Positions 1-30,786 of a stretch of DNA of 42,022 nucleotides are shown one piece after another. A program made the translations under genes and the position numbers. The notes under the pieces were generated by a model, which searched no databases, was not told the DNA's origin, and saw only the letters and a program-made list of their open reading frames with translations. The stretch is from Candidatus Thorarchaeota archaeon. GTDB taxonomy: Archaea; Asgardarchaeota; Thorarchaeia; Thorarchaeales; Thorarchaeaceae. The stretch's first letter is position 1. Each line of letters starts with the position of its first letter. The DNA is taken from assembly GCA_020348985.1 (NCBI GenBank), contig CP070761.1, forward strand, positions 2,739,387 to 2,781,408. The letters are read 5' to 3'.

Positions 1-1813
1 AGTATACTAAGACGTGTGTTGTATTCCAGAGCTTGAATGTCTTCAACGATTCTGTTAGCGACGTCGACATCATGGCGTAGCCCATCAATGCAATCTGCGT
101 ACTATTGAACGTGGCATTATCGACTATCGTTTTTGCCCCGGCTGCACCGTTGATCCAGTATCCGTAGTCCCACCAGCTACCGATGACAGCCGTTTCGGGC
201 AAGACATTCCGTATGTAGGTCATTGCAGTCTGCCAATCAGTCACTTGTTGGCTATCTGAAACGGCAGCCGGAGCAAACTCCGGATTTGCGACTCCCGCTG
301 TGGCATACTGCACTCCAAGAAACACGTTCACGGAAAGAAGTAAGCCTAAAAACGCAAATGCTGCAATTGCATGTTCTGACGTTAAGGATGAACTCATCCG
401 GAATCGACGTCTTTCGAATACAGACTTCTGCGTGACAACTTTCGCATATGGTGACAATGCGTTGCTTACAGCGACAGCTGAAAGCACTGCAACACCAGGT
501 GCAAGAATCAGGCCAAGCCGAATCATACTCCCTGTGAAGTAGACTGCAGTTACTCCGTAGAGAAAGATGAGCCAGTCTTCATCTCTTCCACGCTTGAATA
601 GAAAGTACATGCCTAGTGGGAAGAAGAATATCAGAACAACTAACGTGTTGTAGAAGCTTGACCACGGGCTCGGTAGGTGTTCTGCTACTGAGGCGAATAT
701 CCGTTGATCAAGTCTGTAGAATGGATTGATGACAGTTAGGAATTTGCCGCCAATCGTAAGAATCGGATTTGATTGGTAAGTGGAAATGGAAAGATCAGCA
801 TTCGATGCATACAAGAAGTATGTTGCCGCTCCCACGATGGGTGCAATGGCTCCAAGCAGAATTTGTCTTGCATATGGCGTCAATGCCTGTGCTGTCGCTT
901 CCCGATAGCCACCAATTCTTAACCAAACCTCATACCCTGCTAGAAGAACACCAACGCCGATTGGAACCAAAAGCTGGAATGATGTAAGGTTGGCGAATCC
1001 GTTTCGTGGAACAAGACCACCTATGAAAAGCCCCAGGGAAATGGTGACGAGATATGATGAAAGAAGCTTCTTGCTGTATCGACCGAAAACAAGCATGAAG
1101 AATGCGTACATTGCCAAGAGGTCTGTGAGGAAGTCTGCGGCCCCCCATGAACCCATAAGGTACGCTAATGATAATCCTGCTGCCATTGCAGACGGAAGGG
1201 ACCCCCGTTTGATGCTTCTGGTGAAGAAGTAGAGTGTAGTTACAATGGCAAAGACACCAATGAACTCGTTGTCGTAGAATCCCGCAATCGTTCTCTGAAG
1301 GAAAGCAGGCATGAAGGCTAGAAACAACGCACTCAACAAGCCGACTGTGTTGTTGGACAGCTCACGTCCAAGCAAGAATGCAACAATCGTTGTTAGGGCA
1401 CCAAAGAATGCTGGAATGACGAGTGCCACAGATAGAATGTCGACACTGATGCCTATTCCGTTGATTATCTGATGAAAGATTGCTGTAGTGAACGGAACTC
1501 CCAGATAGGTTGTTCTTGTCATGTCGCGTCCGAACGGGACCCAAGTTGTCTCGTCGTACCAAGTGAAGAATGAACCAAAGCCATTCTCAGTAATGTACTC
1601 TGACACTTTGAGCTGGAACCACGGGTCGAAAGCACGTACTATGGGTTGCGAATCAAGAATGGGAACAAGGCGCAATCCTAATGCCGCAAAGAAAATCAAA
1701 CAAAGTGAGATGACCAGCATGATAGAGCCGCGTGATATCTTCGCCTTTGGTTTGTGGAATACCTGCCGCAGGAACCTGACAGCTGACCTCTTAAATCTGC
1801 TAAATCTGGACAT
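1..1813 (-). CDS. aglB: Oligosaccharyltransferase catalytic subunit STT3/AglB, truncated at the window start
   Basis: Absent from the ORF track because it runs off the edge. Manual translation from ATG 1813 gives MSRFSRFKRS...RAFDPWFQ...WYDETTWVPFGR, QRTIAGFYDNE, FASVAEHLP, and SWWDYGYWI...IVDNATFNST. These are the STT3 catalytic motifs, including WWDYG. Confidence 0.96.
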   Translation of the reverse strand, partial: MSRFSRFKRSAVRFLRQVFHKPKAKISRGSIMLVISLCLIFFAALGLRLVPILDSQPIVRAFDPWFQLKVSEYITENGFGSFFTWYDETTWVPFGRDMTRTTYLGVPFTTAIFHQIINGIGISVDILSVALVIPAFFGALTTIVAFLLGRELSNNTVGLLSALFLAFMPAFLQRTIAGFYDNEFIGVFAIVTTLYFFTRSIKRGSLPSAMAAGLSLAYLMGSWGAADFLTDLLAMYAFFMLVFGRYSKKLLSSYLVTISLGLFIGGLVPRNGFANLTSFQLLVPIGVGVLLAGYEVWLRIGGYREATAQALTPYARQILLGAIAPIVGAATYFLYASNADLSISTYQSNPILTIGGKFLTVINPFYRLDQRIFASVAEHLPSPWSSFYNTLVVLIFFFPLGMYFLFKRGRDEDWLIFLYGVTAVYFTGSMIRLGLILAPGVAVLSAVAVSNALSPYAKVVTQKSVFERRRFRMSSSLTSEHAIAAFAFLGLLLSVNVFLGVQYATAGVANPEFAPAAVSDSQQVTDWQTAMTYIRNVLPETAVIGSWWDYGYWINGAAGAKTIVDNATFNSTQIALMGYAMMSTSLTESLKTFKLWNTTHVLVY

Positions 1814-1846
1814 TCTAGTGCTCCATCCGCTTTGACCCGGTTTCAT

Positions 1847-1874
1847 CCGAGCCAATCTTGGTTCGGCTAAAAAG
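1847..1874 (-). promoter_or_regulatory. Putative aglB TATA-like box followed by a 20-bp palindrome
   Basis: Minus strand reads CTTTTTAG, then CCGAACCAA-GA-TTGGCTCGG (1847-1866), 34-53 nt upstream of the ATG. Confidence 0.4.
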
Positions 1875-1956
1875 CTTGCTGTTGGTGGAAGAGATGTACA
1901 GGGCGGTCTGGTAGCTGCAGAAACATCCAATCGACGCGTCTGGAACAGTCCTGCAT

Positions 1957-2355
1957 TCAGAGTGCTGCAATGAAGTCGGAATAACCCTTACTGTCCATCA
2001 GGTTCTTGAGTTCTTCATCCAGATTAGATGGTTTGACTTTCATCATCCAGCCCTTTTCATAAGGTGACTCATTGACAATCTCAGGAGCATCTTCTAGGGC
2101 GGCATTGACTTCAACAATCTCACCAGAGATTGGCACATATAGCTCAGATGATGCTTTCATGGATTCAACAAGACCACATTCGTCACCTGCATTGAGTACG
2201 GTGCCAGCTTCGGATATCTCTACAAATGTAATCTCATGCAGTGAATGCTGGGCAAAATCAGTGATTCCTACAACAACCACGTCACCTTCCACGCGAGCCC
2301 ATTCGTGTTCCTTGCTGTAGTAAAGGCCTTCGATAACATTCGTCCCTTCAGTCAT
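1957..2355 (-). CDS. gcvH: Glycine cleavage system H protein
   Basis: YYSKEHEW, VGITDFAQ, lipoyl-lysine motif VESMKASSELY, and NESPYEKGW. TTTAAA box at 2393-2398. Confidence 0.96.
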   Translation of the reverse strand: MTEGTNVIEGLYYSKEHEWARVEGDVVVVGITDFAQHSLHEITFVEISEAGTVLNAGDECGLVESMKASSELYVPISGEIVEVNAALEDAPEIVNESPYEKGWMMKVKPSNLDEELKNLMDSKGYSDFIAAL

Positions 2356-2412
2356 ACAGGTCCACCACGACTCGCGATTGGTGAGGCGGTCCTTTAAATC
2401 AGTTTGGGAGAA

Positions 2413-3561
2413 TCAGAGAGTTCTGTGTTCTCCGTATCTCTCGGGATCAAAGAAAGGCCACGTTGTAACCCTTGCCCTTCTTGTTCTTCCCTTGATATCT
2501 ATCTCTACTACGTCGTCAACTTCCACAGTCTTGGGCTTGACATAGGCCAGACCTATGCCTTTACTCAGCATAGGCGACATAACTCCGCTTGTTATCTTTC
2601 CGATCTTGCTACCTTTGAAACTGACATCGTACTGAGGACGTGGGATACCCCTGTCAATCATCTCGACCCCAATCCGAGTCTTTCTAATCCCACCCTCTTT
2701 CTTGTGACGTCTAACAACATCATATCCCAAGTAATGCGGGTCGACTTTGAACTTGACTGCATACGGTATTCGTGCCTCAATCGGTGAAGTGCTTTCATCT
2801 AGCTCATTTCCATAGAGGACAAGCCCAGCCTCTAGACGAAGTGAATCTCTTGCACCCAAACCACAGGGTTTCGCATTGTATTCTTCTCCCAGTTCTAGCA
2901 TTCCTTCCCAGAAAGCTATGGCTCTTTGCTTGCCATCAGAATCGATCGGCGTATTCAAGACCAGAACCTCGCCTCCGCTTTCGCCGGTATATCCAGTTCG
3001 GCAAAGATAGCATTCAAAGCCTGAGAGAGTCACAGGATTGATACTGAATCTTGCTAGGTCAGTAAGATCCTTGCCTGCTGCCTTCGAGAGAAGATGAAGT
3101 GCACTTGGACCCTGAATAGCCACCATAGACACTTCACTAGAACGATCCTCTATGGATACCTCAAACTTTTCTGCATTCTTGAGGAGATGCTTCTTGATTT
3201 TCGGACCATTGACAGCGTTTGTTATCCAGATGTACTCCTCTTCGCTCACGCGATAGAGGGTCAGGTCATCAAGAATACCGCCTTGCTCGTTGAGACAAGT
3301 CGTATACTGGCCCCCATATACACCAATCTTGCTCACATTGTTGCTTGTGAGGGTCTGCAGAAACTCTTGTGCCTGTGGTCCACGAATCCAGAAACGAGAC
3401 ATGTGAGAAGTATCAAAAATGCCCACTGCGTCGCGAACGGCCATATGTTCTTGTCGAATGTCAGTATAACGAACCGGCATTTCCCACCCAGCAAAAGGAA
3501 CGACGTCACCATGGGCAACGTGCCAATCATACAGCTGTGTTCGCTTGAGTGTGTCGCTCAT
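2413..3561 (-). CDS. gcvT: Glycine cleavage system T protein (aminomethyltransferase)
   Basis: FAGWEMPVRY, GIFDTSHM, RTGYTGESG, GLGARDSLRLEAG. Confidence 0.96.
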   Translation of the reverse strand: MSDTLKRTQLYDWHVAHGDVVPFAGWEMPVRYTDIRQEHMAVRDAVGIFDTSHMSRFWIRGPQAQEFLQTLTSNNVSKIGVYGGQYTTCLNEQGGILDDLTLYRVSEEEYIWITNAVNGPKIKKHLLKNAEKFEVSIEDRSSEVSMVAIQGPSALHLLSKAAGKDLTDLARFSINPVTLSGFECYLCRTGYTGESGGEVLVLNTPIDSDGKQRAIAFWEGMLELGEEYNAKPCGLGARDSLRLEAGLVLYGNELDESTSPIEARIPYAVKFKVDPHYLGYDVVRRHKKEGGIRKTRIGVEMIDRGIPRPQYDVSFKGSKIGKITSGVMSPMLSKGIGLAYVKPKTVEVDDVVEIDIKGRTRRARVTTWPFFDPERYGEHRTL

Positions 3562-3695
3562 TCTAAGTTCTCCTTGTGATGGCCGTTCCTCATTGACTTG
3601 GTTATATCACTTGCGACCTGACTTTGCATAATCGACAGCAACAAAAGCAACTCTGTTTCATCTGTGCCTGGAAGACAATCAGAGGATATCAAGAG

Positions 3696-4526
3696 TTGAA
3701 GTATCATACCGTAGTTGTAGATAGGCTGAATATTGGACGAGACTTCCCAGTTCGGATAATGGGTGTCATCAACCTCTCCCCAGAGTCATTCTACAGGGGT
3801 TCTGTCGCAGAAGAGTTGGATGAAGTCGGAACGCTGGTTAGGAAGTTGGATGAAGCAGGCGCTGATTTGATTGATGTTGGAGGAGCCTCTTCCGCACCAA
3901 CGAATATCTACGGAACACAGCAGGTGACACGTGATGAAGAGCTTCGGCGAGTCTCGTCTACGATGGATGTGATTTGCGAAAGTACAAAGAAACCCATTTC
4001 GATAGACACCACATCGGCAAGGATTGCAGCCGAAGCTCTGGATTTAGGTGCATCTCTTGTGAATGACATTTCAGGACTTAAGAGTGATCCAGAGATGGCG
4101 TCCTTGATTGCAGTTCGAGATGTACCTGTGATTATAATGGCAAACTGCAAGGCGCCCTGTACGAGTTGCGATTCTGTTTTCGAAGCGATTGAGAGAAGCC
4201 TCCAGGCCGCGGCTTCAGCAGGAATATCTAGTCATCAGATTATTGTAGATCCTGGATTTGGATTTGGGAAACCTTATGACGTGGACTTTGAAATACTTAG
4301 AAACCTGGATAGGTTCGCATCATTTGGACATCCTGTGTTGGTTGGTCTTTCGAGAAAGGCCTTCATAGGCTCAGTTCTGCAGCAACCAAATCCTGAATCT
4401 AGGTTGGCTGGAACAATAGCGGCTACATCTTTGGCAGTTGCCAGAGGAGCAAACGTAGTCCGGACACACGACGTTCAAGAAGCAGCGACTGCTTCAATCA
4501 TTGGAAGTGCCATGAGAAACTGGTGA
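3696..4526 (+). CDS. folP: Dihydropteroate synthase
   Basis: IMGVINLSPESFY, IDVGG, ISIDT, VNDISG, DPGFGFGK, GLSRK, VRTHDV. Start placed at in-frame TTG 3696 (the ORF track starts at 3624). Confidence 0.92.
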   Translation: MKYHTVVVDRLNIGRDFPVRIMGVINLSPESFYRGSVAEELDEVGTLVRKLDEAGADLIDVGGASSAPTNIYGTQQVTRDEELRRVSSTMDVICESTKKPISIDTTSARIAAEALDLGASLVNDISGLKSDPEMASLIAVRDVPVIIMANCKAPCTSCDSVFEAIERSLQAAASAGISSHQIIVDPGFGFGKPYDVDFEILRNLDRFASFGHPVLVGLSRKAFIGSVLQQPNPESRLAGTIAATSLAVARGANVVRTHDVQEAATASIIGSAMRNW

Positions 4527-5246
4527 TTGAAGTTGAAATGGGAAGATTGGGAAGAAACGTATCTGGACATAGTAGGACGCCTTGGCCTTGATACTGATGC
4601 AGACAGAGCCGCAACTTCTCTTCTGTCGACACTTCTAAGGGACACAGATTCTGAGGTCTTGCTGACTGAACTGGAAGAAAGAATCAGAAACCGTACAATT
4701 GTCGTCTGCGGCGCAGGACCATCGTTGGAAAGGCACTTGGCCGAGCTGCTTTCTTCTGAGGAATCAGACAACTTGGTCTTTGTCGCGGCAGATGGTGCGG
4801 TATCTGCGCTTCTGAACATAAACAACGATTGTGACATCCTCGTGACTGATCTGGATGGAAAGCTATCAGACATTAGACAGGCAAACAAGACTGGGACTTT
4901 GACCATTGTTCATGCACATGGAGATAATACAAATGTTGTCCAACGAGTGGTTCCCGAACTTGGAGAGGTTTTGGGCAGCACTCAGGTTGAACCTGCTCCG
5001 AATGTGTTCCTATGGGGTGGATTCACAGATGGTGACAGGGCCTGTCATATTGTCTCCCATTATTCTCCCAAACGAGTTATCCTTGCAGGAATGGATTTTG
5101 GTTCGAAGGTTGGACTATGGTCAAAACCAGATCACTCATCACATTTTAGAGCATCCAATAGAAAGCAAATCAAGCTGCAAATCGCAGACGAGCTAATCTC
5201 ATCTCTGAAAGAGACCGGCAAGCTGGAATACACTATCTTAAGGTAG
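4527..5246 (+). CDS. mptE: 6-hydroxymethyl-7,8-dihydropterin pyrophosphokinase, MptE/DUF115 family
   Basis: VCGAGPSL, AADGA, VTDLDG, VHAHGDN, GGFTDGDRA, LAGMDF. Abuts the folP stop codon. Confidence 0.9.
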   Translation: MKLKWEDWEETYLDIVGRLGLDTDADRAATSLLSTLLRDTDSEVLLTELEERIRNRTIVVCGAGPSLERHLAELLSSEESDNLVFVAADGAVSALLNINNDCDILVTDLDGKLSDIRQANKTGTLTIVHAHGDNTNVVQRVVPELGEVLGSTQVEPAPNVFLWGGFTDGDRACHIVSHYSPKRVILAGMDFGSKVGLWSKPDHSSHFRASNRKQIKLQIADELISSLKETGKLEYTILR

Positions 5247-5272
5247 TCGTCTGGTGGCGAACTTCGCTAGGA

Positions 5273-5695
5273 CTAGAACTGGCCTGTCTTGATGCCGAAC
5301 ATGTAAGTGATGATAAGAAAGGCAACTCCCGCTAGAATCATGCCTAGAGTCATAAGACGTGTGGCATATCCTGGTTGGAATACGTACTTTGAGGAGTAGT
5401 AGACTAGGCCTAAACCTAGCGCACCCATCATTATAGTAACTGATGCCACAATGCCCTCCATGCCCAGTTGGAAATCGATAGACGGAGCTATGAGAATCGG
5501 CTGGCCACCTGCACCGCCCGCAATTGCTGGGGGTGTTTTAACCAGAGTGTATATGTTTCCCCCAAGTATGAACAGCACAGCAATCATCACTAGACCAAAG
5601 ACCACGACGTCAGGGGGTCGAGTAGGCATCTTGAATCGGGGTCTTGACAGTCTTACACTGGGCTTCACTATGGTGCTGGGCCACCAAGGCTTCAT
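5273..5695 (-). CDS. OST3/OST6-family membrane protein, DC2/OSTC-like oligosaccharyltransferase subunit
   Basis: 140 aa with three hydrophobic helices and the pattern LGGNIY...PP...Q-x-x-MEGIVAS...MGALG, matching DC2/OST3-6 C-terminal motifs as recalled. Confidence 0.8.
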   Translation of the reverse strand: MKPWWPSTIVKPSVRLSRPRFKMPTRPPDVVVFGLVMIAVLFILGGNIYTLVKTPPAIAGGAGGQPILIAPSIDFQLGMEGIVASVTIMMGALGLGLVYYSSKYVFQPGYATRLMTLGMILAGVAFLIITYMFGIKTGQF

Positions 5696-5822
5696 TTTTG
5701 AACCTCTAGCGGGACCGTCTTGTGGTCTGCTTTTAAGACTATCGTGAGGTGCACAGCTGTACCAGCCGAATCCGAGTGTTTCATCCAGGCGAACCGTTCT
5801 TGACAGGCTTCCTTCGGGCAGT

Positions 5823-5830
5823 ATTTAAAG
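5823..5830 (+). promoter_or_regulatory. TATA box of topA
   Basis: ATTTAAAG about 45-50 nt upstream of ATG 5874, followed by a GAGGTGA/GAGGAG SD-like sequence. Confidence 0.5.
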
Positions 5831-5873
5831 AACTGACCATTTGAACCGATGACGAGGTGAAGAGGAGTTCCTA

Positions 5874-8009
5874 ATGTCCCGACTAATGGTCATCTCTGAG
5901 AAACCAATGGCTGCCAAGAAGTTAGCCGAAGCCTTGGACGAGCAAGGTAAGCCTGTTGAAATCAAGAAACGAAAGGCATCATACTACGAATGCAAAAGAA
6001 ATGATGACACTCTGGTTGTGGTCTACGCCCTGGGTCATCTATTCGAGCTTCGGCAGATAGAGAAGGGTTGGACATATCCACGGCTGGAAACAGAGTGGGT
6101 GCCGAAGTACGAAGTAGTGAAGAAGGCCCAGGATACAAAATACATAATCAACCTCATCAAGAAGCTCTCAAAAGATGTGGATAGGTTCATAGTCGCAACT
6201 GACCATGACATGGAAGGCAGCCTCATTGGATACACAACTCTAAAGTATGCTTGTGGAGCAGATCCAAAAACAGCTGAAAGGATGTTCTTCTCATCATTGA
6301 CCAAGACGGATCTTATCGAGGCATTTGAGAATAGGGCATCATCTCTGGACTTTTCGATGATAAACGTTGGCTGTGCCAGACATCAGATAGACTGGTTATA
6401 CGGGATTAATCTTACACGTGCAATGACGCTTGCAGTAAAAGATGTGTCTGGCTGGTTCAGGATTGTATCCACTGGCAGAGTTCAAGGACCAACCCTTGGT
6501 TTCGTGGCTGAGCGCGAAATGATGATCAATATGTTTGTACCAATCCCATTTTGGAGAATAGAAGCAGTTGCAGAACATGAAGGGAAGTCATTTGAACTCG
6601 AGTATTCGATGAAACGCATTTCAAAAGAGAACCATGCTGAAAGAATTGTGGAGAGCCTAGAGGACAAGAGTCTAACTGTTGATACAATAAGGACGACGAC
6701 GACATTACAGAATCCTCCAGTGCCCTTCAACCTAAGTGGTCTTCAATACGAAGCATATAGACATTTCAAATTCAAACCAAGTCGGACTCTTGCATTGGCA
6801 CAGAAGCTATACCTGGATGCATTGATATCTTATCCTCGTACCAGCAGCCAGAGAATTCCAGAAACTCTTGATGTAAAGACCATAATCGAGGGTCTACGAA
6901 AGAATAGAATCTACGCGAAGCTCTCCGGTCGAATTCTTGAGACCAATCTAGTTCCAGTGCAAGGGAAGAAAGACGATCCGGCACATCCCGCCATACATCC
7001 TACTGGATTAAAGCCCGAAAGGAAACTTACTCCCAGTGAAGGAAAGGTGTATGACCTCATCGTTAGACGATTTCTCGCACTATTTGCAGATTCTTCCAAA
7101 AGAGAGAGCATTAGAGCAGATCTCGTTAGGGAGAACCATCGTTTCTATGTGCGGGGGCTACGGGTCCTTGAGTTGGGATGGATGGAGTACTATGGCCCAT
7201 ATGCCACCTTGGAAGAAAGATCTCTTCCCAGTATTAGCAAGGGGGATACAGTGGACATTGCGTCAATCGTAGCTGAGAGAAGACATACTTCTCCTCCTTC
7301 AAGGTTTAATCCCTCTAGTCTCCTCAGAGTACTGGAGAAGGAGAATCTTGGTACTAAGGCAACTCGTTCAACTATCGTAGAATCGTTAAGATCTCGTGGA
7401 TACACATTGAGTGACCGACATGAATTGTCCACACTAGGGTATGCAGCATTTGAGACTCTGAAATGCCATGTTTCAAAGCTGCTTTCAGCAAGCTTCACAA
7501 GAGAATTAGAGCTGGAGATGAATTGTATACATGAAGGAACCTCTACCAGACAAGAAGTGCTGTCAAGAGCCAAAGACGGTCTTCTGACATTACTTGAGAC
7601 CTTCAAAGCACATGATAAAGAGATTGGAGAAGCACTTGTGTTTGGACTCCGGAAATACTGGAAAGCCAAGCAAGAGATTGGGACTTGCCCCAGTTGTGGA
7701 GACGGTACTCTCAACATCATACGTTCACCGAAGACAGGAAAACGGTTCGTCGGATGTTCGAATTACAAAGAAGGTCTCTGTAATCAGACATACCCACTCC
7801 CTCAGAAGGGAGACATATCTCCCCTAGACAAGATGTGTCCGCATTGCGGGCATCATATGATCAGGATTCTGTCAAGAAGAGGGGTTTGGGAGACTTGCAT
7901 CAATTGGAGCCTATGTCTAGGAAGACAGGATGACATCAAGGCGCTGGAAATGAAGAGAAGGGAACACAGGAAGGAAACCTCCACGGGAAGTGAGAAACTG
8001 AATGAATGA
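5874..8009 (+). CDS. topA: DNA topoisomerase I (type IA) with C-terminal zinc ribbons
   Basis: TOPRIM ISEKP and ATDHDMEG, STGRVQGP, active-site ISYPRT, AHPAIHPT, LGTKATR, and CPSC/CSNY/CPHC zinc ribbons. Confidence 0.96.
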   Translation: MSRLMVISEKPMAAKKLAEALDEQGKPVEIKKRKASYYECKRNDDTLVVVYALGHLFELRQIEKGWTYPRLETEWVPKYEVVKKAQDTKYIINLIKKLSKDVDRFIVATDHDMEGSLIGYTTLKYACGADPKTAERMFFSSLTKTDLIEAFENRASSLDFSMINVGCARHQIDWLYGINLTRAMTLAVKDVSGWFRIVSTGRVQGPTLGFVAEREMMINMFVPIPFWRIEAVAEHEGKSFELEYSMKRISKENHAERIVESLEDKSLTVDTIRTTTTLQNPPVPFNLSGLQYEAYRHFKFKPSRTLALAQKLYLDALISYPRTSSQRIPETLDVKTIIEGLRKNRIYAKLSGRILETNLVPVQGKKDDPAHPAIHPTGLKPERKLTPSEGKVYDLIVRRFLALFADSSKRESIRADLVRENHRFYVRGLRVLELGWMEYYGPYATLEERSLPSISKGDTVDIASIVAERRHTSPPSRFNPSSLLRVLEKENLGTKATRSTIVESLRSRGYTLSDRHELSTLGYAAFETLKCHVSKLLSASFTRELELEMNCIHEGTSTRQEVLSRAKDGLLTLLETFKAHDKEIGEALVFGLRKYWKAKQEIGTCPSCGDGTLNIIRSPKTGKRFVGCSNYKEGLCNQTYPLPQKGDISPLDKMCPHCGHHMIRILSRRGVWETCINWSLCLGRQDDIKALEMKRREHRKETSTGSEKLNE

Positions 8010-8223
8010 ATGTGCTATATGCGATCGTCTAGCTACGCCGGGAAGTGTCTATTGTGAGTATCATTCCAAAGCCTACGATAATCTCAGAGATGCCTTTGAG
8101 AAGTGGAAGGAATCTCTTGAGATCGAATGGGACAAGTACTTGAAACAACTGCTAGAAACAGAGGGCACAGGGCTTTGGATACAAGAGATTGCAGAATACA
8201 TCATTCAACAAGGTTCGATTTGA
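8002..8223 (+). CDS. Small hypothetical protein with a C-x2-C-x9-C-x2-H zinc finger
   Basis: CAICDRLATPGSVYCEYH followed by amphipathic helices; overlaps the topA stop by 8 nt. Confidence 0.7.
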   Translation: MNECAICDRLATPGSVYCEYHSKAYDNLRDAFEKWKESLEIEWDKYLKQLLETEGTGLWIQEIAEYIIQQGSI

Positions 8224-8545
8224 GTGCTGATATGATATCAACCATCACTGCTCGGTCCATTTGTGCAACATGCACAACTATCATGCATGTCTTGTTTAGG
8301 TAAGCTGCAACTTTCTCCGCAATGGTTCTGACAAGTGTACTGCCGAGTCCCATAGTGAATAGGCCAGAAGACGTGGGCTCGTTTCGTCCTTGACCTGGAG
8401 GGATTGCAACCGCAGATAGTCCAAGTTTGAATGCAGGTGAATCAGTGATTAGGACCAATGCCCCGTTTTCCAAATCCATCATGCGGAACTTCAGTTTTCC
8501 TCCGCTTGTATCAGATTCGAACTCCCGAATATCACTGAACTCCAT
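8201..8545 (-). CDS. Proteasome assembly chaperone PAC4/PSMG4-like protein
   Basis: 114 aa from ATG 8545. FRMMDLENGALVLIT...LGLSAVAIP...PTSSGLF...IAEKVAAYLNKTCMIVV resembles the PAC3/PAC4 pattern. Confidence 0.6.
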   Translation of the reverse strand: MEFSDIREFESDTSGGKLKFRMMDLENGALVLITDSPAFKLGLSAVAIPPGQGRNEPTSSGLFTMGLGSTLVRTIAEKVAAYLNKTCMIVVHVAQMDRAVMVDIISALKSNLVE

Positions 8546-8683
8546 TTTTCCTCGATTCACAAAGATTAGTTGTCGCCAAATAAAGCCTATTCAAACAACT
8601 TAGTGACTGGACCAGTCCAACTGTCTCTCGGACCGAGCAACATGGTTATCAATAGCTTGGAATCCGATGCATGGTGGCCATCA

Positions 8684-10612
8684 ATGACTAAACGCCTCTC
8701 CGCTTCAGATTTCTTTCCCTACGACATGCCCAGAAAGGGTCAGGACAGGATGATGGAGCAGATTGAGAAGGCTGTGAGAAACGGGCAGAACATGATAGCA
8801 GAAGCACCAAATGGATTTGGAAAGACCATCACAGCTCTGTGCGGGATTCTGCCTTGGGTCCAAGAAACCTATGGAAAAGTGCTGTATTGTGCAAGAACTC
8901 ACAAGCAACTGGACAGGGTGATTGAGGAACTCGAAAAGATAGCAGAAGGCCGCCCCGTCACCGGTGTATCGTTCCGTGGAAGGCATCACATGTGCCTTAA
9001 CGAATTCGTTCTTGAGAATGCCGGCCTAATTGCACCTATTGGAGAGGTTTGCAGGCAACTAAAGGCTACTCGGAAGTGTGTATACTATGAGTATCTTCGT
9101 AAGGCAGGGACCCCAGAAGATCTATTGGAGGATATGCCGTTCAGAGTAATGACAGCTCCTGACATCATCAAGACAGCTAAGATTCGGAGCTACTGTCCTT
9201 ATGAACTTGCTAAGCAAATAGCGAAAGTAGTTGATGTCGTTGCTTTGTCATATCTGTATGTGTTTGATCCAGACATTCTGGAATCTTTCTTACCTGAATT
9301 GGAGACTCCACTCTCAAAGATGGTTCTTATACAAGATGAGGCTCACAATGTACCTTCTACCGCATTGGACTCTGCAAGCGATTCACTGACTATTGGTACT
9401 GTGCGCCAGGCAGTTCGTGAGTCGGCCACATACAATGATTCTCTGTCACAGACATTTTGTAGAGAGCTTGCAAAGGTGATTCTGGCTAATCTGGAGGGAT
9501 TGCAGGAAAACGATGAGAAAGCCGTTGCTCCCTATGAGATATACGAATCTACGGTCAAAGCTGCCAAACTTGATTCCGAGGACGAACCATTGGCTCACAT
9601 GATTTCCATTGGAGCGAACATTCAGAAAGCTCTTCTGAAAGCAGGAAGATTCCCGCAGTCAGCTATCTTTCGTGTGGCAGAGTTCATGTCAGGGTGGCTC
9701 CAAAGGGCGGACAGGGAAGACTATGCGTTTGTTCTGTCCTCAGTCACAGAACCCGGAAGGAGTAGGAGGGCCTCGATTGATCTTGTTGCACTGGATCCAA
9801 CTAAGGTGACCAAACCAATCTTGAGGAGAATTCATAGTAGCATTGCAATATCAGGGACAATCTCACCACTCGACGCATACTCTGATATGCTGGGATTTCA
9901 GGATGATTTTGTAGGAGAGACATTCGAGAGCCCTTTTGCCCGTAGGAATCGACTTGGAATGATTGTAGAAGGCATAGACACTGCGTACGGCAGTAGGAAT
10001 GAAGCCTTGTTTGAACAGCTTGTTGATCACTGTGTAGCTATAGCTCATGCGACACCTGGGAACACGGGTATTTTCGCAACCAGCTACTTCCTTGCAAAGT
10101 CTCTTGTAAAGGCCGGTCTCGAAAAGAGACTAGACCGTCCTCTGTTTGTTGAGAAGCAGCGTGCAAAAAGTGCAGATAATGACAAGATGGTAGAGGAATT
10201 CAAGGAAATGGGTGCGGGTAGAGGAGCTGTTCTTCTTGGTGTGCAAGGAGGACGAAATTCTGAAGGGGGGGATTTTCCGGGACCCACTATGAATAGTGTG
10301 ATTGTGGTTGGGGTTCCATATGCCAGACCAACCCCACGGACTGAAGCAAGGATTGAATTCTATGACAAGAAGTTCAAGAGCAGAGGCCGAGACTATGCGT
10401 ACGTTCTTCCTGCAATGACCCGAGCTACACAAGCTGCAGGCAGACCGGTGAGAAGACTTGAGGACAAGGGTGCTATCATTCTCCTAGATGAGAGGTTTGC
10501 AACGCCCTATCTTAGAAGATTCATTCCATCATGGCTGAAAGACGTCTTACAAGTCATGCCTAATGATCCCGGGATGATATCACAGCAGGTAGAGAGGTTC
10601 TTCTCAGACTAA
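8684..10612 (+). CDS. xpd: XPD/Rad3 (DinG-family) Fe-S DNA helicase
   Basis: EAPNGFGKT, ARTHKQL, four Fe-S cysteines (HMCLN, VCRQ, KCVY, YCPYE), DEAHN, ISGTISP, SEGGDF, QAAGRPVR. Start placed at ATG 8684. Confidence 0.93.
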   Translation: MTKRLSASDFFPYDMPRKGQDRMMEQIEKAVRNGQNMIAEAPNGFGKTITALCGILPWVQETYGKVLYCARTHKQLDRVIEELEKIAEGRPVTGVSFRGRHHMCLNEFVLENAGLIAPIGEVCRQLKATRKCVYYEYLRKAGTPEDLLEDMPFRVMTAPDIIKTAKIRSYCPYELAKQIAKVVDVVALSYLYVFDPDILESFLPELETPLSKMVLIQDEAHNVPSTALDSASDSLTIGTVRQAVRESATYNDSLSQTFCRELAKVILANLEGLQENDEKAVAPYEIYESTVKAAKLDSEDEPLAHMISIGANIQKALLKAGRFPQSAIFRVAEFMSGWLQRADREDYAFVLSSVTEPGRSRRASIDLVALDPTKVTKPILRRIHSSIAISGTISPLDAYSDMLGFQDDFVGETFESPFARRNRLGMIVEGIDTAYGSRNEALFEQLVDHCVAIAHATPGNTGIFATSYFLAKSLVKAGLEKRLDRPLFVEKQRAKSADNDKMVEEFKEMGAGRGAVLLGVQGGRNSEGGDFPGPTMNSVIVVGVPYARPTPRTEARIEFYDKKFKSRGRDYAYVLPAMTRATQAAGRPVRRLEDKGAIILLDERFATPYLRRFIPSWLKDVLQVMPNDPGMISQQVERFFSD

Positions 10613-11376
10613 TCACGTATCAGAAGAAACTCCTTCAACGACATCTTACCAAGGAGTACCATGCGTGCTTGCTCCTTTGTGGCTTTGTGCTTTCCTTCAG
10701 TGAGCTTCCTCTTCATATGCAGTAGTGTACGAACATGACCTTCCTTAGGATCAATCCGAAAGTCGGCCTCGGTGGGGTTGTGTCCATGCCGTGATGCAAT
10801 AAGAACTGCAGCCATTTGATCGGTTTCCCCCACCACTGTTGTGTTACGCTCGTCAACAAGCTGGACCCTTGTTAAATGAAAGTCAGGAGGAAATGAACGA
10901 AGAAGAAGAACTGTGAAAAGCCGATATCCAGTTCCTATGCGAAAAGAAGTCGTTACTTCAGGGAAGAGCTCCGAGATGTACCGTTCCCATCTGAGTGTGA
11001 GTTCGGTGGCATCATGAGGAGTAGAGAGCGTTCTTGTATTTACCACGTATCCATCAACTACCAATGCTAGGCCGAATCTCATGCCAGGATCAATGCCAAT
11101 TGTTGCACCAACGGGCCGATGAAGTCTGAGCAACTTCATCATTATCTGGATTGTAGCAAGTTCCTCGTCAAAATGTTCACCAAGAATAACCAGACGTTCA
11201 GGGTCAAGTCCTGATATCTCGTCATTGAAGGAGACTATAACAACAGAAGCAGAAAGGACTAGTTTGTTGTCAGGTTCTAGTACTTCAAACTCGAAATTGA
11301 GCGTCTTTAGGAGAGACACAGCGTGATAGAGAGCTTTAGGGTTTCTTGTGGCGACAACTATTGCCGGTCTGACCAT
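10609..11376 (-). CDS. YqgF/RuvX-like RNase H-fold nuclease with N- and C-terminal extensions
   Basis: IGIDPG..FGLA, VDERNTT, DQMAAVLIA. Start placed at ATG 11376 to avoid overlap with the divergent radB. Confidence 0.7.
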   Translation of the reverse strand: MVRPAIVVATRNPKALYHAVSLLKTLNFEFEVLEPDNKLVLSASVVIVSFNDEISGLDPERLVILGEHFDEELATIQIMMKLLRLHRPVGATIGIDPGMRFGLALVVDGYVVNTRTLSTPHDATELTLRWERYISELFPEVTTSFRIGTGYRLFTVLLLRSFPPDFHLTRVQLVDERNTTVVGETDQMAAVLIASRHGHNPTEADFRIDPKEGHVRTLLHMKRKLTEGKHKATKEQARMVLLGKMSLKEFLLIRD

Positions 11377-11400
11377 CCGCTCGTACCTTCTCAGGGTAAG

Positions 11401-11406
11401 TTTATA
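11401..11406. promoter_or_regulatory. Shared TATA box of the divergent YqgF-like and radB genes
   Basis: TTTATA lies about 25 nt from both start codons in a 52-nt intergenic gap. Confidence 0.45.
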
Positions 11407-11428
11407 CCTGTTCCGTAGTGACGTATCG

Positions 11429-12127
11429 ATGGTGAAGGGTGATTTGATTCTTCCGTCCGGTGTATCCTCACTGGACCGCATACTCAACGGTGGTCTGTCC
11501 ACTGGACATTTGACTCACGTATTTGGCAGTGCTTCCGCCGGAAAGACAACCTTGGCTTTGCAGTTTGTTGCAGGTGCATGCCGACTAGGAATTAGAGTTG
11601 CCTACATCAACTCTGAGACAACCTCTCCACTTGAAAGGCTATCACAGATAACAGAGAAAGAATTTACTGAACTTGAGGACACTGTCAGAATCCTATCACC
11701 AAAAACGTTCGAAGAACAAGGCGCTGTGATTAATGATTTGGAACTCTATGCACGTGAGGAAACGCAGCTCATAGTAGTTGACACTCTTACTCGTCTTTAC
11801 CGAACTGTGCTTGAGGACAAGACAGCCAATTACGCAGCACATAGAGAACTAAACATGCAGGCAGGCATTCTGAAAGGACTTGCGAGACAAAAAGACATGG
11901 CGGTCTTGGTTCTGAATCAAGTAAGGGGAAGTCTGGAAGAAACCAAGGGATTTGTGCCAGTCGCTCACAACATCCTCGATTACTGGGCGGACTATGCAAT
12001 CAGGATGACCAGAGGAACTAGAAAGGGAGAACGGCACTTGGAACGACTGTTGCCTGAGGACGGGTTCTCTCAGACAGTTTTCATTACAGAGAGAGGTTTC
12101 TCGCTAACGGAGAAGCCGCAAGAGTAA
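11429..12127 (+). CDS. radB: RadB-like RecA/Rad51 paralog (ATPase core only)
   Basis: LDRILNGG, Walker A GSASAGKTT, Walker B LIVVDTLTRLYR, VLNQVR. No N-terminal HhH domain. Confidence 0.8.
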   Translation: MVKGDLILPSGVSSLDRILNGGLSTGHLTHVFGSASAGKTTLALQFVAGACRLGIRVAYINSETTSPLERLSQITEKEFTELEDTVRILSPKTFEEQGAVINDLELYAREETQLIVVDTLTRLYRTVLEDKTANYAAHRELNMQAGILKGLARQKDMAVLVLNQVRGSLEETKGFVPVAHNILDYWADYAIRMTRGTRKGERHLERLLPEDGFSQTVFITERGFSLTEKPQE

Positions 12128-12150
12128 TACGATGTGAGCTTTCGTTAGGG

Positions 12151-12726
12151 TTGACGTCGATGTATGAGGAAGTTGCGCTAATTGGTCTAGCTCTCTGGAT
12201 TGGACTCCCTGCATGGATAACCAACTCAACACCTGTGATATTTGGTGGGGGAAGACCGATTGATGGCGGCCGATTTCTTCGGGATGGGCACCGGATTTTA
12301 GGAGATGGAAAGACCATTCGCGGATTCATAGCTGGAGTAGTCTGTGGGACGCTAACAGCCTTAGCTCAGTACCTTGCTGCGCCATTCGTTAGGATTGAGA
12401 TGGAAAACTATATTGTCGTTACTCCTGAAATGGATGTGATTCTTTTCATGGGGGTCTTGGCAGGATTCATGCTCTCCCTTGGGACACTAGTTGGCGACCT
12501 TGTGGGATCATTTGTGAAGAGAAGAGCGAATCTCAAGAGCGGGGCGCCGTCGCCAGTGTTAGATCAATTGGGATTCATTATCATGGCACTCATCTTCGCG
12601 GCCCCGTTTTTTGCGCCTTCACCCAGTTACCCTGCGGTTGCGGTGCTCTTCGTGATGACTTTTCTTGTGCACTACATCAGTAATGTCGGAGGATATTTGC
12701 TGGGTGTAAAGGAACACCCTTGGTAG
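12151..12726 (+). CDS. carS: CDP-archaeol synthase (DUF46)
   Basis: NSTPVIFGGGRPIDGG, ILGDGKTIRGF, GDLVGSFVKRR, LDQLGF, terminal GVKEHPW. Confidence 0.93.
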   Translation: MTSMYEEVALIGLALWIGLPAWITNSTPVIFGGGRPIDGGRFLRDGHRILGDGKTIRGFIAGVVCGTLTALAQYLAAPFVRIEMENYIVVTPEMDVILFMGVLAGFMLSLGTLVGDLVGSFVKRRANLKSGAPSPVLDQLGFIIMALIFAAPFFAPSPSYPAVAVLFVMTFLVHYISNVGGYLLGVKEHPW

Positions 12727-12879
12727 CGGCCGAGAACCATTCGAGGAGTATTGTTGGCCTCTCATGATGACAAACCTTCACTCCCGTTCGAAGAAAACCA
12801 TAAAAGGCAACTAAATGCCATAATCTTGTTCTGACAATATTGCTGGACAGCTGATGTTCGGCAGGAATACTGAGTATCG

Positions 12880-17282: not shown

Positions 17283-17422
17283 TTGCTGTCAATTGGATGC
17301 TCACATCAACCATAATTTGCCTTTCGGCCCGACACAAGTGAATATGACTCGGTGAGTACGAGTAGGGAGCTTTATAGGTTTCAGCAGGAATCTCAGGTTG
17401 AATCACCTGCTCATCCGCCGGG

Positions 17423-20448: not shown

Positions 20449-20678
20449 TCCCTCACAAGGACCCAGCGGTAGCCGCCTTTGCCGAATTTCTTCGTTATCA
20501 GACCTCTCTCTACAAGTTGATTTGCGCCTGCTACAACAGAATCTCCTCCAGCACAGTCTGCGCAGAGATCCGAATGCTCTGGCTTCTTGGCTCTGGCAAG
20601 AATCTCAGTAGTTGTCAGTGATTCCCCGGACTCCAGAATGCGTAGAACACATTGCGCGTTCCTTGTGAGGTCGGTCAT
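20445..20678 (-). CDS. Small winged-helix protein with a CxxC insertion
   Basis: 77 aa: VLRILESGESLTTTEIL...CADC...ANQLVERGLITKKFGKGGYRW (helix-turn-helix plus wing). Adjoins the sufS start. Confidence 0.7.
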   Translation of the reverse strand: MTDLTRNAQCVLRILESGESLTTTEILARAKKPEHSDLCADCAGGDSVVAGANQLVERGLITKKFGKGGYRWVLVRD

Positions 20679-20708
20679 TGGTTTCGGCTCCGAGCAGACT
20701 GTAATATG

Positions 20709-20761
20709 AAGGCTTCTGTCAGATGTTGTCATAGATGACAAGCCTTAAATGAAATCTGACA
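20709..20761. promoter_or_regulatory. Divergent promoter region (wHTH-sufS and elf1) with nested palindromes
   Basis: Perfect TTGTCAT-AG-ATGACAA (20726-20741), outer TGTCAGAT/ATCTGACA, and CTTAAAT TATA at 20744-20750. Confidence 0.5.
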
Positions 20762-20831
20762 TGGTCGAGCCCGCTCTGTTTCTTTCGGGCTCTACGTTCG
20801 GATTGTGTGAAATAGGCGAAGGTGAACAGAA

Positions 20832-21086
20832 TTGGGTAGAAGGCGAAGACAGAAAGTCCGGCGTCGGCCTCAGAGACGAATTCCAGACGTATATCCGTGT
20901 CCTGAATGCGGCAACACGGCCGTCAAAATCGAGATATACAGAGACAACAAGATTGCAACGGTTAGATGTGGTTCGTGCTCATTGGAAATGTCCATCGACG
21001 GCGACAAGGTCGGTCCGCTCACTGAAGCTGTTGATATATACGGCGATTTCATAGATGTGTTCTACCAGAGCCGAGAGAGTACTTGA
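20832..21086 (+). CDS. elf1: Transcription elongation factor Elf1
   Basis: Basic N-terminus GRRRRQK, CPECG...CGSC zinc ribbon, and EAVDIYGDFID. AAGGTGA SD before the TTG start. Confidence 0.9.
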   Translation: MGRRRRQKVRRRPQRRIPDVYPCPECGNTAVKIEIYRDNKIATVRCGSCSLEMSIDGDKVGPLTEAVDIYGDFIDVFYQSREST

Positions 21087-21150
21087 TAGTTCAATACTCG
21101 GAATTCAGCAACGATTATAAGAGAAGCAAATCCGGGGTCACGGGATTCCC

Positions 21151-21264
21151 ATGCAGACCAGTTTCATCGAACAGATTATGCCCATCGTTCTCAACGTCAT
21201 GGGTTTCATGGCATTGTTGATAATACTGGGCTACATGGTCTATGGTGAAGAGGAAGAGGAATAA
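21151..21264 (+). CDS. 37-aa single-pass membrane microprotein, candidate OST4-like
   Basis: Below the ORF-track cutoff. Sequence MQTSFIEQIMPIVLNVMGFMALLIILGYMVYGEEEEE. TTATAA box at 21115-21120; the ORF fills an otherwise empty gap. Confidence 0.65.
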   Translation: MQTSFIEQIMPIVLNVMGFMALLIILGYMVYGEEEEE

Positions 21265-21285
21265 TCAAACGGAAGCGTTCTCCCG

Positions 21286-21516
21286 ATGGGCTCTATTGAA
21301 TCCATTCAGCTTGCTTTCGAGAACGTAAAAGCTTACATTACAAACACTGATGCAATGAAGAGCTTGGTTCAAGAGCTCTCATCTGAAGTCAACTCACCTA
21401 ACGAATTCCTTGACACGCTTTACGATAGGATGAGTAGCGCTGAAATCACTCTGAAGACTGATATCAGGATTCTTCTGAATGAGATTGAGAGGTTACAGCG
21501 CAAGGAGTCTGGTTGA
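21286..21516 (+). CDS. Hypothetical helical protein
   Basis: 76-aa ORF with amphipathic helices; its stop overlaps the lhr start (TTGATG). Confidence 0.7.
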   Translation: MGSIESIQLAFENVKAYITNTDAMKSLVQELSSEVNSPNEFLDTLYDRMSSAEITLKTDIRILLNEIERLQRKESG

Positions 21517-24353: not shown

Positions 24354-24945
24354 CCCTGAAGATAAGCTAATTGTCATTGCAGGTCGTAGCAATGTGGGCA
24401 AGAGCAGTATGATAAGAGCGCTCACTGGGAGAAAGGTAAGAGTTGGAAAACGACCTGGAAGCACAAAGTGGGAGCAATTGATCGACCTTGGCGCCTTCTT
24501 GCTAGTAGACATGGCAGGTTTTGGCTTCATGGCTGGACAGAGCAAGACTGCGATTGAGGAAATGAAGACAGAGATTGTTAGAAAGCTGGAGAGTTGGGGC
24601 AGACAAATCGTCCTATCCATTCTCATTGTGGACATTTCGTTGTTCAGAACACTCTTCGAGAGATGGGACGCTCGAGACGAGATTCCAATCGATGTCGAGT
24701 TCTACAGCTTTCTTTCTGAAATATCACCTGAAGTCATTGTTGCAGCTAACAAGAGTGACAAGCTGAAGAAGAAACAGCTTGAGATTGACTTGGAATTCAT
24801 GAAGTCGTGTCTCGTCGAAATCGTTCCTAGTTCTGAACCCATTATTGTCCCAATATCTGCCACTAAAGGAAAAGGGGTACTCAGCCTGAAAGATGCGGTT
24901 GAGTGCTCACTGAGAGATAGAGACCTTGGAAAACCGAGTTGGTAA
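24325..24945 (+). CDS. engB: EngB/YihA-family GTP-binding protein
   Basis: GRSNVGKSS, GKRPGST, DMAGFGFM, NKSD, PISA. Confidence 0.9.
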   Translation: MPEQDRSGIDPEDKLIVIAGRSNVGKSSMIRALTGRKVRVGKRPGSTKWEQLIDLGAFLLVDMAGFGFMAGQSKTAIEEMKTEIVRKLESWGRQIVLSILIVDISLFRTLFERWDARDEIPIDVEFYSFLSEISPEVIVAANKSDKLKKKQLEIDLEFMKSCLVEIVPSSEPIIVPISATKGKGVLSLKDAVECSLRDRDLGKPSW

Positions 24946-24946
24946 A

Positions 24947-26071
24947 CTATCGCTTGATTCTCTTGAATATGTAGAAAGCCACGCCGACTACAAGAATGGC
25001 TGAAGAAATAATGGCCATTGGAACTATGGCTCCGGGGGGCTCAGTAGAACCTTCAGAAAGCCAATTGAGCATATTCATGAAGAGCCTAGAATTATCCGCT
25101 TGGTAGAACCAACGTAGATCTGTGCGGTCATCTTCAAGAGGGAGATCCAATGTGCGAGCTGTAAACATCAGAGTAGACCCAGCAACGATGACTCTGCTCG
25201 TGTCATACTGGAACGCTGCTAACCATGGTGGGAATGTTCCATTTATAGCGGAATATGATAATGGTACTTCATTGAAAGCATCGAGACTCATGTTGGGGTA
25301 TGATAGGTTCGCCCAAGTGTTTGGCCCTCGACGATACTGAGCGAATGTTGTCTCATGACTCCTAGCAACTATGCTAGCATCGTCGATAGGCTTCAGAGTT
25401 GCAGTCATTGTGATTAGAGAGTTTATGTCTTTGAATATGGGGTGAGTTGTATCCCAGGTCGAAGAATCTAACTCAATGACCCAGGGGACCGTTTCGTTGA
25501 GAGCGTGTTCATAGTCGAACATAGTGTCTGCCCTCTGAGTTGGTAGACCTGCGCTTGTAGTATGATTGACACTGAATCTGACACCAGTCATGTTAATGCC
25601 ATCAAAGAAATTGTTGAGAGCATAGTTTTCTCCAAGATCTTGGAATGTCTGATCGGCAACCCAATAGGTGGAATTCTGAGAAATCGTTGGATCTCCAAGC
25701 GCCAATAGTGAGCTTCCATTCGCCAAGAACTCAACAATGCTTTCCAGCTCTTCTTGCCTAAATACGGAAGAGTTGTCTGGATCAGCTATGATCAGAATAT
25801 CCACATCACTCAAGATTGTATCATTGAGAGGATCTTCCTCGTTCAGCTTTACGATGTATTTGGTGGATGCATTGACCACGTCTAGCATGAGTTTCAGGTC
25901 ATAATCGGGATCCCTTGCATCGAATTGTTGTCGGTGTGTTGTATCATATAGCACAACTACGGTGTCCATCTCTTCTCTCTGGGCGGCTACCTCATACTGG
26001 AAACTCGATAATAGCAGCATGGCCACAATGAGAATGGTCCCGGTTCTTGACACAAACGTAGTACGGTGCAT
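24947..26071 (-). CDS. Type I membrane glycoprotein with a GIFT (GldG/IFT52/OST48-N, DUF4350-like) domain
   Basis: Signal peptide; VLYDTTH, DILIIADP, EFLANGSSLLALGD, HPIF, RVIVAGS..MF, DNSRLFMNMLNWL; C-terminal TM helix plus KRIKR; 11 N-x-S/T sequons. Confidence 0.75.
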   Translation of the reverse strand: MHRTTFVSRTGTILIVAMLLLSSFQYEVAAQREEMDTVVVLYDTTHRQQFDARDPDYDLKLMLDVVNASTKYIVKLNEEDPLNDTILSDVDILIIADPDNSSVFRQEELESIVEFLANGSSLLALGDPTISQNSTYWVADQTFQDLGENYALNNFFDGINMTGVRFSVNHTTSAGLPTQRADTMFDYEHALNETVPWVIELDSSTWDTTHPIFKDINSLITMTATLKPIDDASIVARSHETTFAQYRRGPNTWANLSYPNMSLDAFNEVPLSYSAINGTFPPWLAAFQYDTSRVIVAGSTLMFTARTLDLPLEDDRTDLRWFYQADNSRLFMNMLNWLSEGSTEPPGAIVPMAIISSAILVVGVAFYIFKRIKR

Positions 26072-29665: not shown

Positions 29666-29711
29666 ACATATCGTTCCAGTTTGATATCTTGTTCACAATA
29701 CATCTTACATT

Positions 29712-29737
29712 GGTCTATGACATCAATGTTATGGACC
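29712..29737. promoter_or_regulatory. 26-bp imperfect palindrome between the divergent MTase and mvk genes
   Basis: GGTCTATGACAT-CA-ATGTTATGGACC. Confidence 0.4.
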
Positions 29738-29833
29738 TTGACAATATCTCTGGATTTGAAGAATGTCGAAAGAGAGACTTCAAAAGCATGGAAAAACATC
29801 GACCGCCCCAAACCTAAGGCCGTGTGTGAAATC

Positions 29834-30772: not shown

Positions 30773-30786
30773 CGGGGTTGTGAAGA

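Follow-up and report, generated by a model that had tools for sequence, protein, structure and literature searches.

Gene Content of the Locus

Among the membrane machines that eukaryotes are thought to owe to Asgard archaea is the oligosaccharyltransferase (OST). Here, a stretch of 42,022 nucleotides (nt) from a Candidatus Thorarchaeota genome (GCA_020348985.1, contig CP070761.1, positions 2,739,387 to 2,781,408) was analyzed; the whole of it is called the window below, and it is part of a single-contig genome of 3.16 Mb (G000:C1:2739387-2781408 in our numbering). A preliminary description, made from the sequence alone, had picked out an STT3 gene and DC2-like, OST4-like and OST48-like genes in the first 26 kb and proposed that they encode a multi-subunit proto-OST-A complex. 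The open reading frames (ORFs) of STT3, of a 140-amino acid (aa) protein, of a 37-aa peptide and of a GIFT-domain protein were all found at the positions given there, and none of the four is a chance ORF. The features concerned are as follows.

1..1813, minus strand: eukaryote-type STT3/AglB, the catalytic oligosaccharyltransferase, N-terminal and central part (Pfam, PDB matches, motifs)
5273..5695, minus strand: DC2/OSTC-like protein, 140 aa, three transmembrane (TM) helices, OST3/OST6 family (Pfam OST3_OST6, human OSTC match)
21114..21120, plus strand: TATA-like box ATTATAA, 31-37 nt before the start of the 37-aa ORF, a candidate archaeal promoter of the unit formed by this ORF, orf76 and Lhr (read from the sequence)
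21151..21264, plus strand: microprotein of 37 aa with one TM helix, a tail of five Glu and neither Lys nor Arg, proposed as OST4-like (conservation, codon pattern)
21286..21516, plus strand: orf76, small protein of 76 aa, 21 nt past the microprotein gene and overlapping the start of the Lhr helicase gene (tblastn, neighborhood)
24947..26071, minus strand: predicted type I membrane-anchored extracellular GIFT-domain glycoprotein, 374 aa (Pfam, AlphaFold2 model, sequons)

In our reading, which we hold to be probable, the window carries a eukaryote-type OST core of STT3 and a DC2-like protein, a microprotein that may or may not belong to it and a GIFT protein that is likely a substrate, all four being linked by old synteny.

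The STT3 and DC2-Like Proteins

The STT3 gene occupies an open frame at 2..1930(-), with the ATG at 1813 as its likely start, and runs past the start of the window. Its C-terminal part, just outside the window start, reads N in the genome copy used, and for this reason the visible length of 658-716 aa is unreliable; the relatives have open frames of 908-966 aa. It is a single-copy gene in this genome. The protein scores 185.5 bits against the Pfam family PF02516 (cut-off 24.5). When the frame was read through into the flank, its closest solved relatives were human STT3A (3e-85), STT3B and yeast Stt3 (4e-75), and the archaeal AglB C-domains (~1e-5) and PglB (1e-4) gave weaker matches. The motifs SWWDYGYW (WWDYGY in yeast) and VDNATFNSTQIA align to yeast and human STT3. 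The segment SWWDYGYWINGAAGAKTIVDNATFNSTQIA can be aligned column for column with yeast Stt3, and both sequons are kept in it, including the equivalent of yeast N539. In yeast, the glycan at Stt3 N539 touches Wbp1 and Swp1. The closest solved relatives and the alignment of this segment thus confirm the eukaryote-like STT3 of the preliminary description. Such a protein would act at the outer face of the membrane, moving a lipid-linked glycan to the Asn of N-X-S/T sequons.

The 140-aa protein has three hydrophobic stretches and is without a thioredoxin domain. It matches Pfam OST3_OST6 (PF04756) with 38.1 bits (cut-off 27), and the match is limited to profile positions 183-290 of 294, which correspond to the membrane part. 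In a search of all PDB sequences, residues 12-103 matched human OSTC (6S7O chain H) with an E value of 7e-6, and the only other meaningful hit was canine OSTC/DC2 (4e-4); no Ost3, Ost6 or MagT1 chain was among the PDB matches. The open frames of the Asgard relatives measure 124-219 aa, with two longer exceptions (338 and 496 aa), and therefore leave no room for a thioredoxin domain. In the literature the protein goes by the name of "OST3/OST6", a eukaryotic signature protein, and in size and domain make-up this Asgard protein is like DC2/OSTC. Given the OSTC match and the restriction to the membrane part, its earlier designation as a DC2/OSTC-like protein with three TM helices is sound and more precise than the name OST3/OST6.

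Across the Asgard genomes sampled, STT3 is present in 144/151 and relatives of the DC2-like protein in 140/151. By analogy with human OST-A, the DC2-like protein most likely packs against the transmembrane helices of STT3 and may bridge to the Sec61 channel; an assembly of the two is, on the same analogy, the most likely arrangement. The human OST-A subcomplex STT3A-OST4-DC2 (6S7O, 8B6L) resembles the thorarchaeal set in that the STT3, with its catalytic WWDYG motif, is closest to STT3A and the three-helix, thioredoxin-less protein matches OSTC. The yeast subcomplex II, Stt3-Ost4-Ost3/6 (6EZN, 6C26), is similar in combining an STT3 and a protein of the OST3/6 family, and in the thorarchaeal genome a 37-aa single-TM peptide is encoded nearby. 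Unlike the OST4 of both STT3-OST4 subcomplexes, this peptide has no significant OST4 similarity and no YH motif, and its tail is acidic. Moreover, the thorarchaeal set differs from the human and yeast subcomplexes in being a predicted assembly, whose genes are scattered among housekeeping genes.

Asgard homologs of OST subunits have been described before. Those of Ost1 and Ost3 came first, in 2017 (Zaremba-Niedzwiedzka et al., cited via PMC10307638), and those of Ost2, Ost4, Ost5, Swp1 and Wbp1 followed in 2023, so that Asgard homologs of all OST subunits have been published (Eme et al., 2023; PMC10307638). In that study, Ost4 homologs were found in most Asgard classes and WBP1/OST48 was limited to Heimdallarchaeia. 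The OST1, OST3/6 and STT3 of strain MK-D1 have been expressed in HeLa cells (PMC11417166), and OST48-like clusters were listed again in a 2026 preprint. The thorarchaeal genome has the same STT3 and "OST3/OST6" families as these reports, together with an Ost5 homolog. It differs from the published set in that its GIFT protein fails OST48_N and the Ribophorin_I model finds nothing. The Asgard toolkit of STT3 and the DC2-like protein is already known, and with these homologs in print (PMC10307638, PMC11417166) the present finding is a confirming instance of a published idea. The window adds one more Thorarchaeota genome in which the published STT3 and DC2-like core is confirmed, with the Ost5 homolog encoded elsewhere. 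A multi-subunit OST in Asgard archaea is plausible and already published. Of the proto-OST-A that had been proposed, the STT3 and DC2-like parts are backed by direct sequence matches, the OST4 part is unproven, and the OST48 part holds at the superfamily level only.

Other subunits were sought in the whole genome, which is 86% complete. The Pfam models DAD (Ost2/DAD1), Ribophorin_I and Ribophorin_II (Swp1) gave nothing significant in it, and the Ribophorin_II model matched no control genome either. The Ost5/TMEM258 homolog, a protein of 71 aa with two helices, is encoded at G000:C1 ~812442-812657 (+) and scores 28.7 bits in Pfam, above the cut-off; its gene is 1.9 Mb from STT3.

An Old Block of Housekeeping Genes

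Between the four OST candidates lie about 20 housekeeping genes on both strands. At 1-26 kb these include the genes of GcvH, GcvT, FolP, MptE, topoisomerase I, an XPD helicase and a RadA-like ATPase. CDP-archaeol synthase (CarS), a CBS protein, the PolD large subunit and RPA are encoded there as well, as are a cysteine desulfurase (IscS), the Lhr helicase and a GTPase. The remark that the candidates are not one operon was therefore right. A dedicated OST operon is ruled out by the glycine cleavage, folate, topoisomerase, XPD, RadA-like, CarS, PolD, RPA, IscS and Lhr genes that intervene.

Among the family members with listed coordinates for both genes, most have ~16 kb between the gene of the 37-aa peptide and the DC2-like gene, which indicates that the whole region is syntenic. 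The distance between STT3 and the DC2-like gene varies among the Asgard families as follows.

Own family (f1): ~3.5 kb
Family f2: 4.9 kb
Family f3: 4.3 kb
Family f4 (proteins named Hodarchaeota): 0.4 kb, divergent adjoining genes
Family f5: 7-17 kb
Family f8: 1.9 kb
Family f15: 6.3 kb
Family f21: 1.5 kb
At least eight other families: far apart or on separate contigs

Two orders of an old Asgard block can be read from these genomes. One runs OST3-like, CarS, RadA-like, (XPD), STT3, and the other STT3, GcvH, GcvT, FolP, MptE, OST3-like. They are shuffled across at least six Asgard families, and every gene of the block is also in the window (1-12726). The orthologs of the GIFT gene adjoin PolD or RPA in another Asgard family, and nearly do so in the window. 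Since the intervening genes are shuffled members of one old block, the 26-kb "cluster" is inherited gene order. The four genes are within 26 kb of each other through an old, slowly shuffling block of Asgard housekeeping genes and not through an OST locus, and the same block accounts for apparent "OST clusters" in such genomes. Only STT3 and the DC2-like gene stay together persistently enough for function to be a possible cause.

A Conserved Membrane Microprotein

The 37-aa ORF was intact and free of stops in 60/61 genomes of the family, covering 16/16 genera, in a six-frame search. In 12 aligned copies, G18, A21, L22, Y28, Y31 and G32 are invariant, and the tail is acidic. The differences in the core fall on codon positions 1/2/3 as 471/153/867, a pattern that points to purifying selection. 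Four of five copies are absent from a collection of 15 billion proteins, and gene callers thus mostly miss the gene. Judged from its sequence, the ORF is a genuine, strongly conserved gene of a membrane microprotein, and it is one that is mostly missing from protein databases. Of its earlier description as a 37-aa OST4-like peptide, the gene is real, and the OST4 identity found no support in the sequence tests.

Pfam has no match for the peptide or for 11 relatives. The Pfam Ost4 model (PF10215) matched nothing in the six frames of the own genome and gave noise across the 151 Asgard genomes, with none above the cut-off. A profile of the microprotein family did not reach the OST4 chains of the PDB at E 10, and the ESM Atlas returned unnamed clusters only, below 0.9. 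Compared by hhalign with human OST4 (identical to 2LAT), the family was given a probability of 4.9%, in the register N..G....Y. Human and yeast OST4 reach only E 0.07 against each other, and the blank result is for this reason weak evidence either way.

The neighbors of the gene suggest a different connection, in which the microprotein works with orf76 and the Lhr helicase or else has a general role in the membrane, unlinked to glycosylation; we give this somewhat less than an even chance. The microprotein gene and orf76 are spaced by 21 nt, orf76 overlaps the Lhr start, and within the unit of microprotein, orf76 and Lhr the TATA-like box is found upstream of the microprotein gene alone. By tblastn, orf76 is beside the microprotein gene in 10/11 related loci, including one without Lhr. 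The arrangement recurs in family f15, where a 34-aa TM ORF just upstream of the orf76 and Lhr homologs gave a marginal match. With these constant neighbors, the only linkage of the microprotein that can be demonstrated is that with the orf76/Lhr unit, and not with OST genes. On the other hand, a membrane peptide has no obvious role beside a cytosolic DNA/RNA helicase, and adjacency is weak evidence because the gene order of the whole region is conserved anyway. For orf76 itself, no Pfam family was matched.

A counterpart of Ost4, wedged between STT3 helices and stabilizing the DC2-like subunit while the GIFT protein is unrelated to OST, is a possible though rather doubtful alternative. OST4 sits between TM1 and TM13 of STT3 (PMC7226087). 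The 37 aa and one hydrophobic stretch of the microprotein fit the 36-37 aa and single TM of OST4, and the invariant small and aromatic residues G18, A21, Y28, Y31 and G32 would suit helix-helix packing. The published report of Ost4 homologs in most Asgard classes (PMC10307638) favors it as well. Against this stand the hhalign result and the YH motif (LYHYV in human, IYHAV in yeast), in place of which the microprotein has GYMVYG; the His is absent from the whole family. Furthermore, the tail is acidic where human OST4 ends in KKQE, and the constant neighbors are orf76 and Lhr and not OST genes. The confident relatives found by profile are confined to the own family (26/26), and matches elsewhere are marginal. 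Whether the microprotein takes the place of Ost4 on STT3 is beyond what sequence can decide.

Directly upstream of the microprotein gene, at 20749-21054(+), is a 101-aa ORF whose two Cys-X2-Cys pairs (CPECG...CGSC) give it the look of a small zinc-ribbon protein, perhaps of the Elf1 type. No Pfam family matched it at E 0.001, and its conservation in relatives is weak.

A Predicted GIFT-Domain Glycoprotein

The protein at 24947..26071 consists of a signal-like helix (5-23), a GIFT domain (37-342), a TM helix (349-373) and a KRIKR tail. It has 245 close relatives, of which the named ones are all from Thorarchaeota or Promethearchaeia/Promethearchaeota, and some are called "Gldg family". There are 11 N-X-S/T sequons in it, and eight of them are kept in at least 23 of 24 relatives, which makes it very likely that the protein is extracellular, glycosylated and an STT3 substrate. 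It is more likely such a substrate than an OST subunit. As a sequon-rich surface protein found throughout Thorarchaeota, it could be a natural reporter substrate for Asgard N-glycosylation.

An AlphaFold2 model built on an alignment of 106 sequences reached a predicted local distance difference test score (pLDDT) of 87.9 and a predicted template modeling score (pTM) of 0.83; it replaced a first model of pLDDT 64, which had a shallower alignment. The structure matches of the model were ranked by Z score, and a second comparison agreed with the ranking.

IFT52 GIFT domain (5FMR, 5FMS): Z 22.7 and 22.0, 215 residues
Human OST48, residues 44-302 only: Z 21.0-20.4, 230 residues
Yeast Wbp1: Z 19, ~222 residues
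Other GATase1-like folds: Z 18 or less

The best superposition on OST48 (8B6L chain N, residues 45-302; Z 21.0) had a root-mean-square deviation of 2.8 over 230 residues at 16% identity. Sequence profiles searched against the PDB gave IFT52 (8e-13) ahead of OST48 (2e-9) from a broad alignment and IFT52 alone (0.004) from a Thorarchaeota-only alignment; Pfam also shows a weak IFT52_GIFT match. The N-terminal GIFT domain of IFT52 is therefore the best match in both structure and sequence profile, and in fold the N-domain of OST48 is nearly level with it. It belongs to a cytosolic protein without signal peptide or TM helix, whereas the thorarchaeal protein is predicted to be extracellular and is rich in sequons.

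With OST48/Wbp1 and the Hodarchaeal WBP1-like proteins, the thorarchaeal protein shares the GIFT fold, type I topology, a C-terminal TM helix and a short basic tail. The luminal part of Wbp1/OST48 consists of two domains (PMC7226087). In the thorarchaeal model, the TM helix (349-373) comes ~10 residues after the last GIFT helix (327-338), and with the TM helix almost directly behind the GIFT domain the protein is without the second luminal, or middle, domain. The Pfam OST48_N model (PF03345) matched neither this protein nor anything else in the genome. Among the 151 Asgard genomes, OST48_N was above the cut-off in three families only; in two of them the positive proteins measure 415-460 aa and are named Hodarchaeota. 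This confinement agrees with the published restriction of WBP1 to Heimdallarchaeia (PMC10307638).

A search with an alignment of the Hodarchaeal WBP1-like proteins returned proteins of Hodarchaeota only and no eukaryotic OST48. By hhalign, the thorarchaeal GIFT family and these proteins are related with a probability of 97.4% (E 1e-11). The best match of the Hodarchaeal profile in this genome is a different, cytosolic protein of 387 aa with a GIFT domain and a coiled coil.

What had been described as a type I GIFT protein resembling the N-domain of OST48/Wbp1 thus has that topology and that fold, and the likeness to OST48 holds at the superfamily level only. The further step, to an OST48-like subunit, is not supported: the protein is at least as close to IFT52, falls outside OST48_N and has no middle domain, and the Pfam models found neither DAD1 nor ribophorin II in the 86% complete genome.

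The 387-aa protein is encoded at G000:C1 ~2951103-2952266 (-). Its GIFT domain is N-terminal, the rest forms a long and charged coiled coil, and signal peptide and TM helix are both absent; the architecture resembles that of IFT52.

Alternative Readings of the Four Genes

Two observations weigh against the reading of a two-protein core, a likely substrate and inherited linkage. In the GIFT protein, the mean column identity of the TM helix (0.66) almost equals that of the ectodomain (0.70), as would suit a helix packed against another protein in the membrane. In addition, STT3 and the DC2-like gene are 0.4-17 kb apart in eight families, and adjacent and divergent in one Hodarchaeal family; their closeness could come from selection for linkage and not from mere inheritance.

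A four-subunit proto-OST-A of STT3, the DC2-like protein, the peptide as Ost4 and the GIFT protein as OST48 is improbable. It would draw on the membrane location of the four proteins and their conservation within the family, on the fold match to the OST48 N-domain (Z 21.0 over 230 residues) with the same type I topology, on a peptide of Ost4 size in the register N..G....Y, and on the sequon that STT3 retains at the position of yeast N539. These points are outweighed by the want of a statistical OST4 signal, by the failure of OST48_N together with the missing middle domain, and by DAD1 and ribophorins I and II, none of which was found in the 86% complete genome. IFT52 is as close as OST48 or closer, the Hodarchaeal WBP1-like profile prefers another, cytosolic GIFT protein of the same genome, and the linkage is general synteny.

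It is equally hard to credit that the microprotein and the short GIFT glycoprotein, with its missing middle domain, are true STT3-bound subunits, the one an Ost4 counterpart diverged beyond the reach of sequence methods and the other a proto-OST48 that predates the Heimdall-type WBP1. Parts like those of subcomplex III would then reach beyond Heimdallarchaeia.

A GldG-like role for the GIFT protein, as an accessory of an ABC transporter, is likewise unlikely: ABC_transp_aux (PF09822; 40.4 bits, cut-off 34.7) is its sole Pfam family above the cut-off and NCBI names relatives "Gldg family protein", but no ABC transporter genes flank it (the neighbors are a GTPase, Lhr, small ORFs and a phosphoesterase), its syntenic orthologs are beside PolD or RPA, and its nearest structures are IFT52 and OST48.

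Other Observations in the Window and Beyond

Three further features were noted. An ORF of 119 aa at 8201-8560(-) resembles Pfam PAC4 (proteasome assembly chaperone 4) below the threshold, with an E value of 7.6e-4 and 19.9 bits where the cut-off is 31. At 29681-33284(+), a GHMP kinase, a UbiD-family decarboxylase and aconitase X (AcnX) are encoded in a row, which resembles the archaeal modified mevalonate pathway with its kinase, anhydromevalonate-phosphate decarboxylase and phosphomevalonate dehydratase. In another Asgard genome (G126, L042:3690-8732), the match to the PolD large subunit is in two pieces ~1.6 kb apart, which suggests an intein or other insertion.

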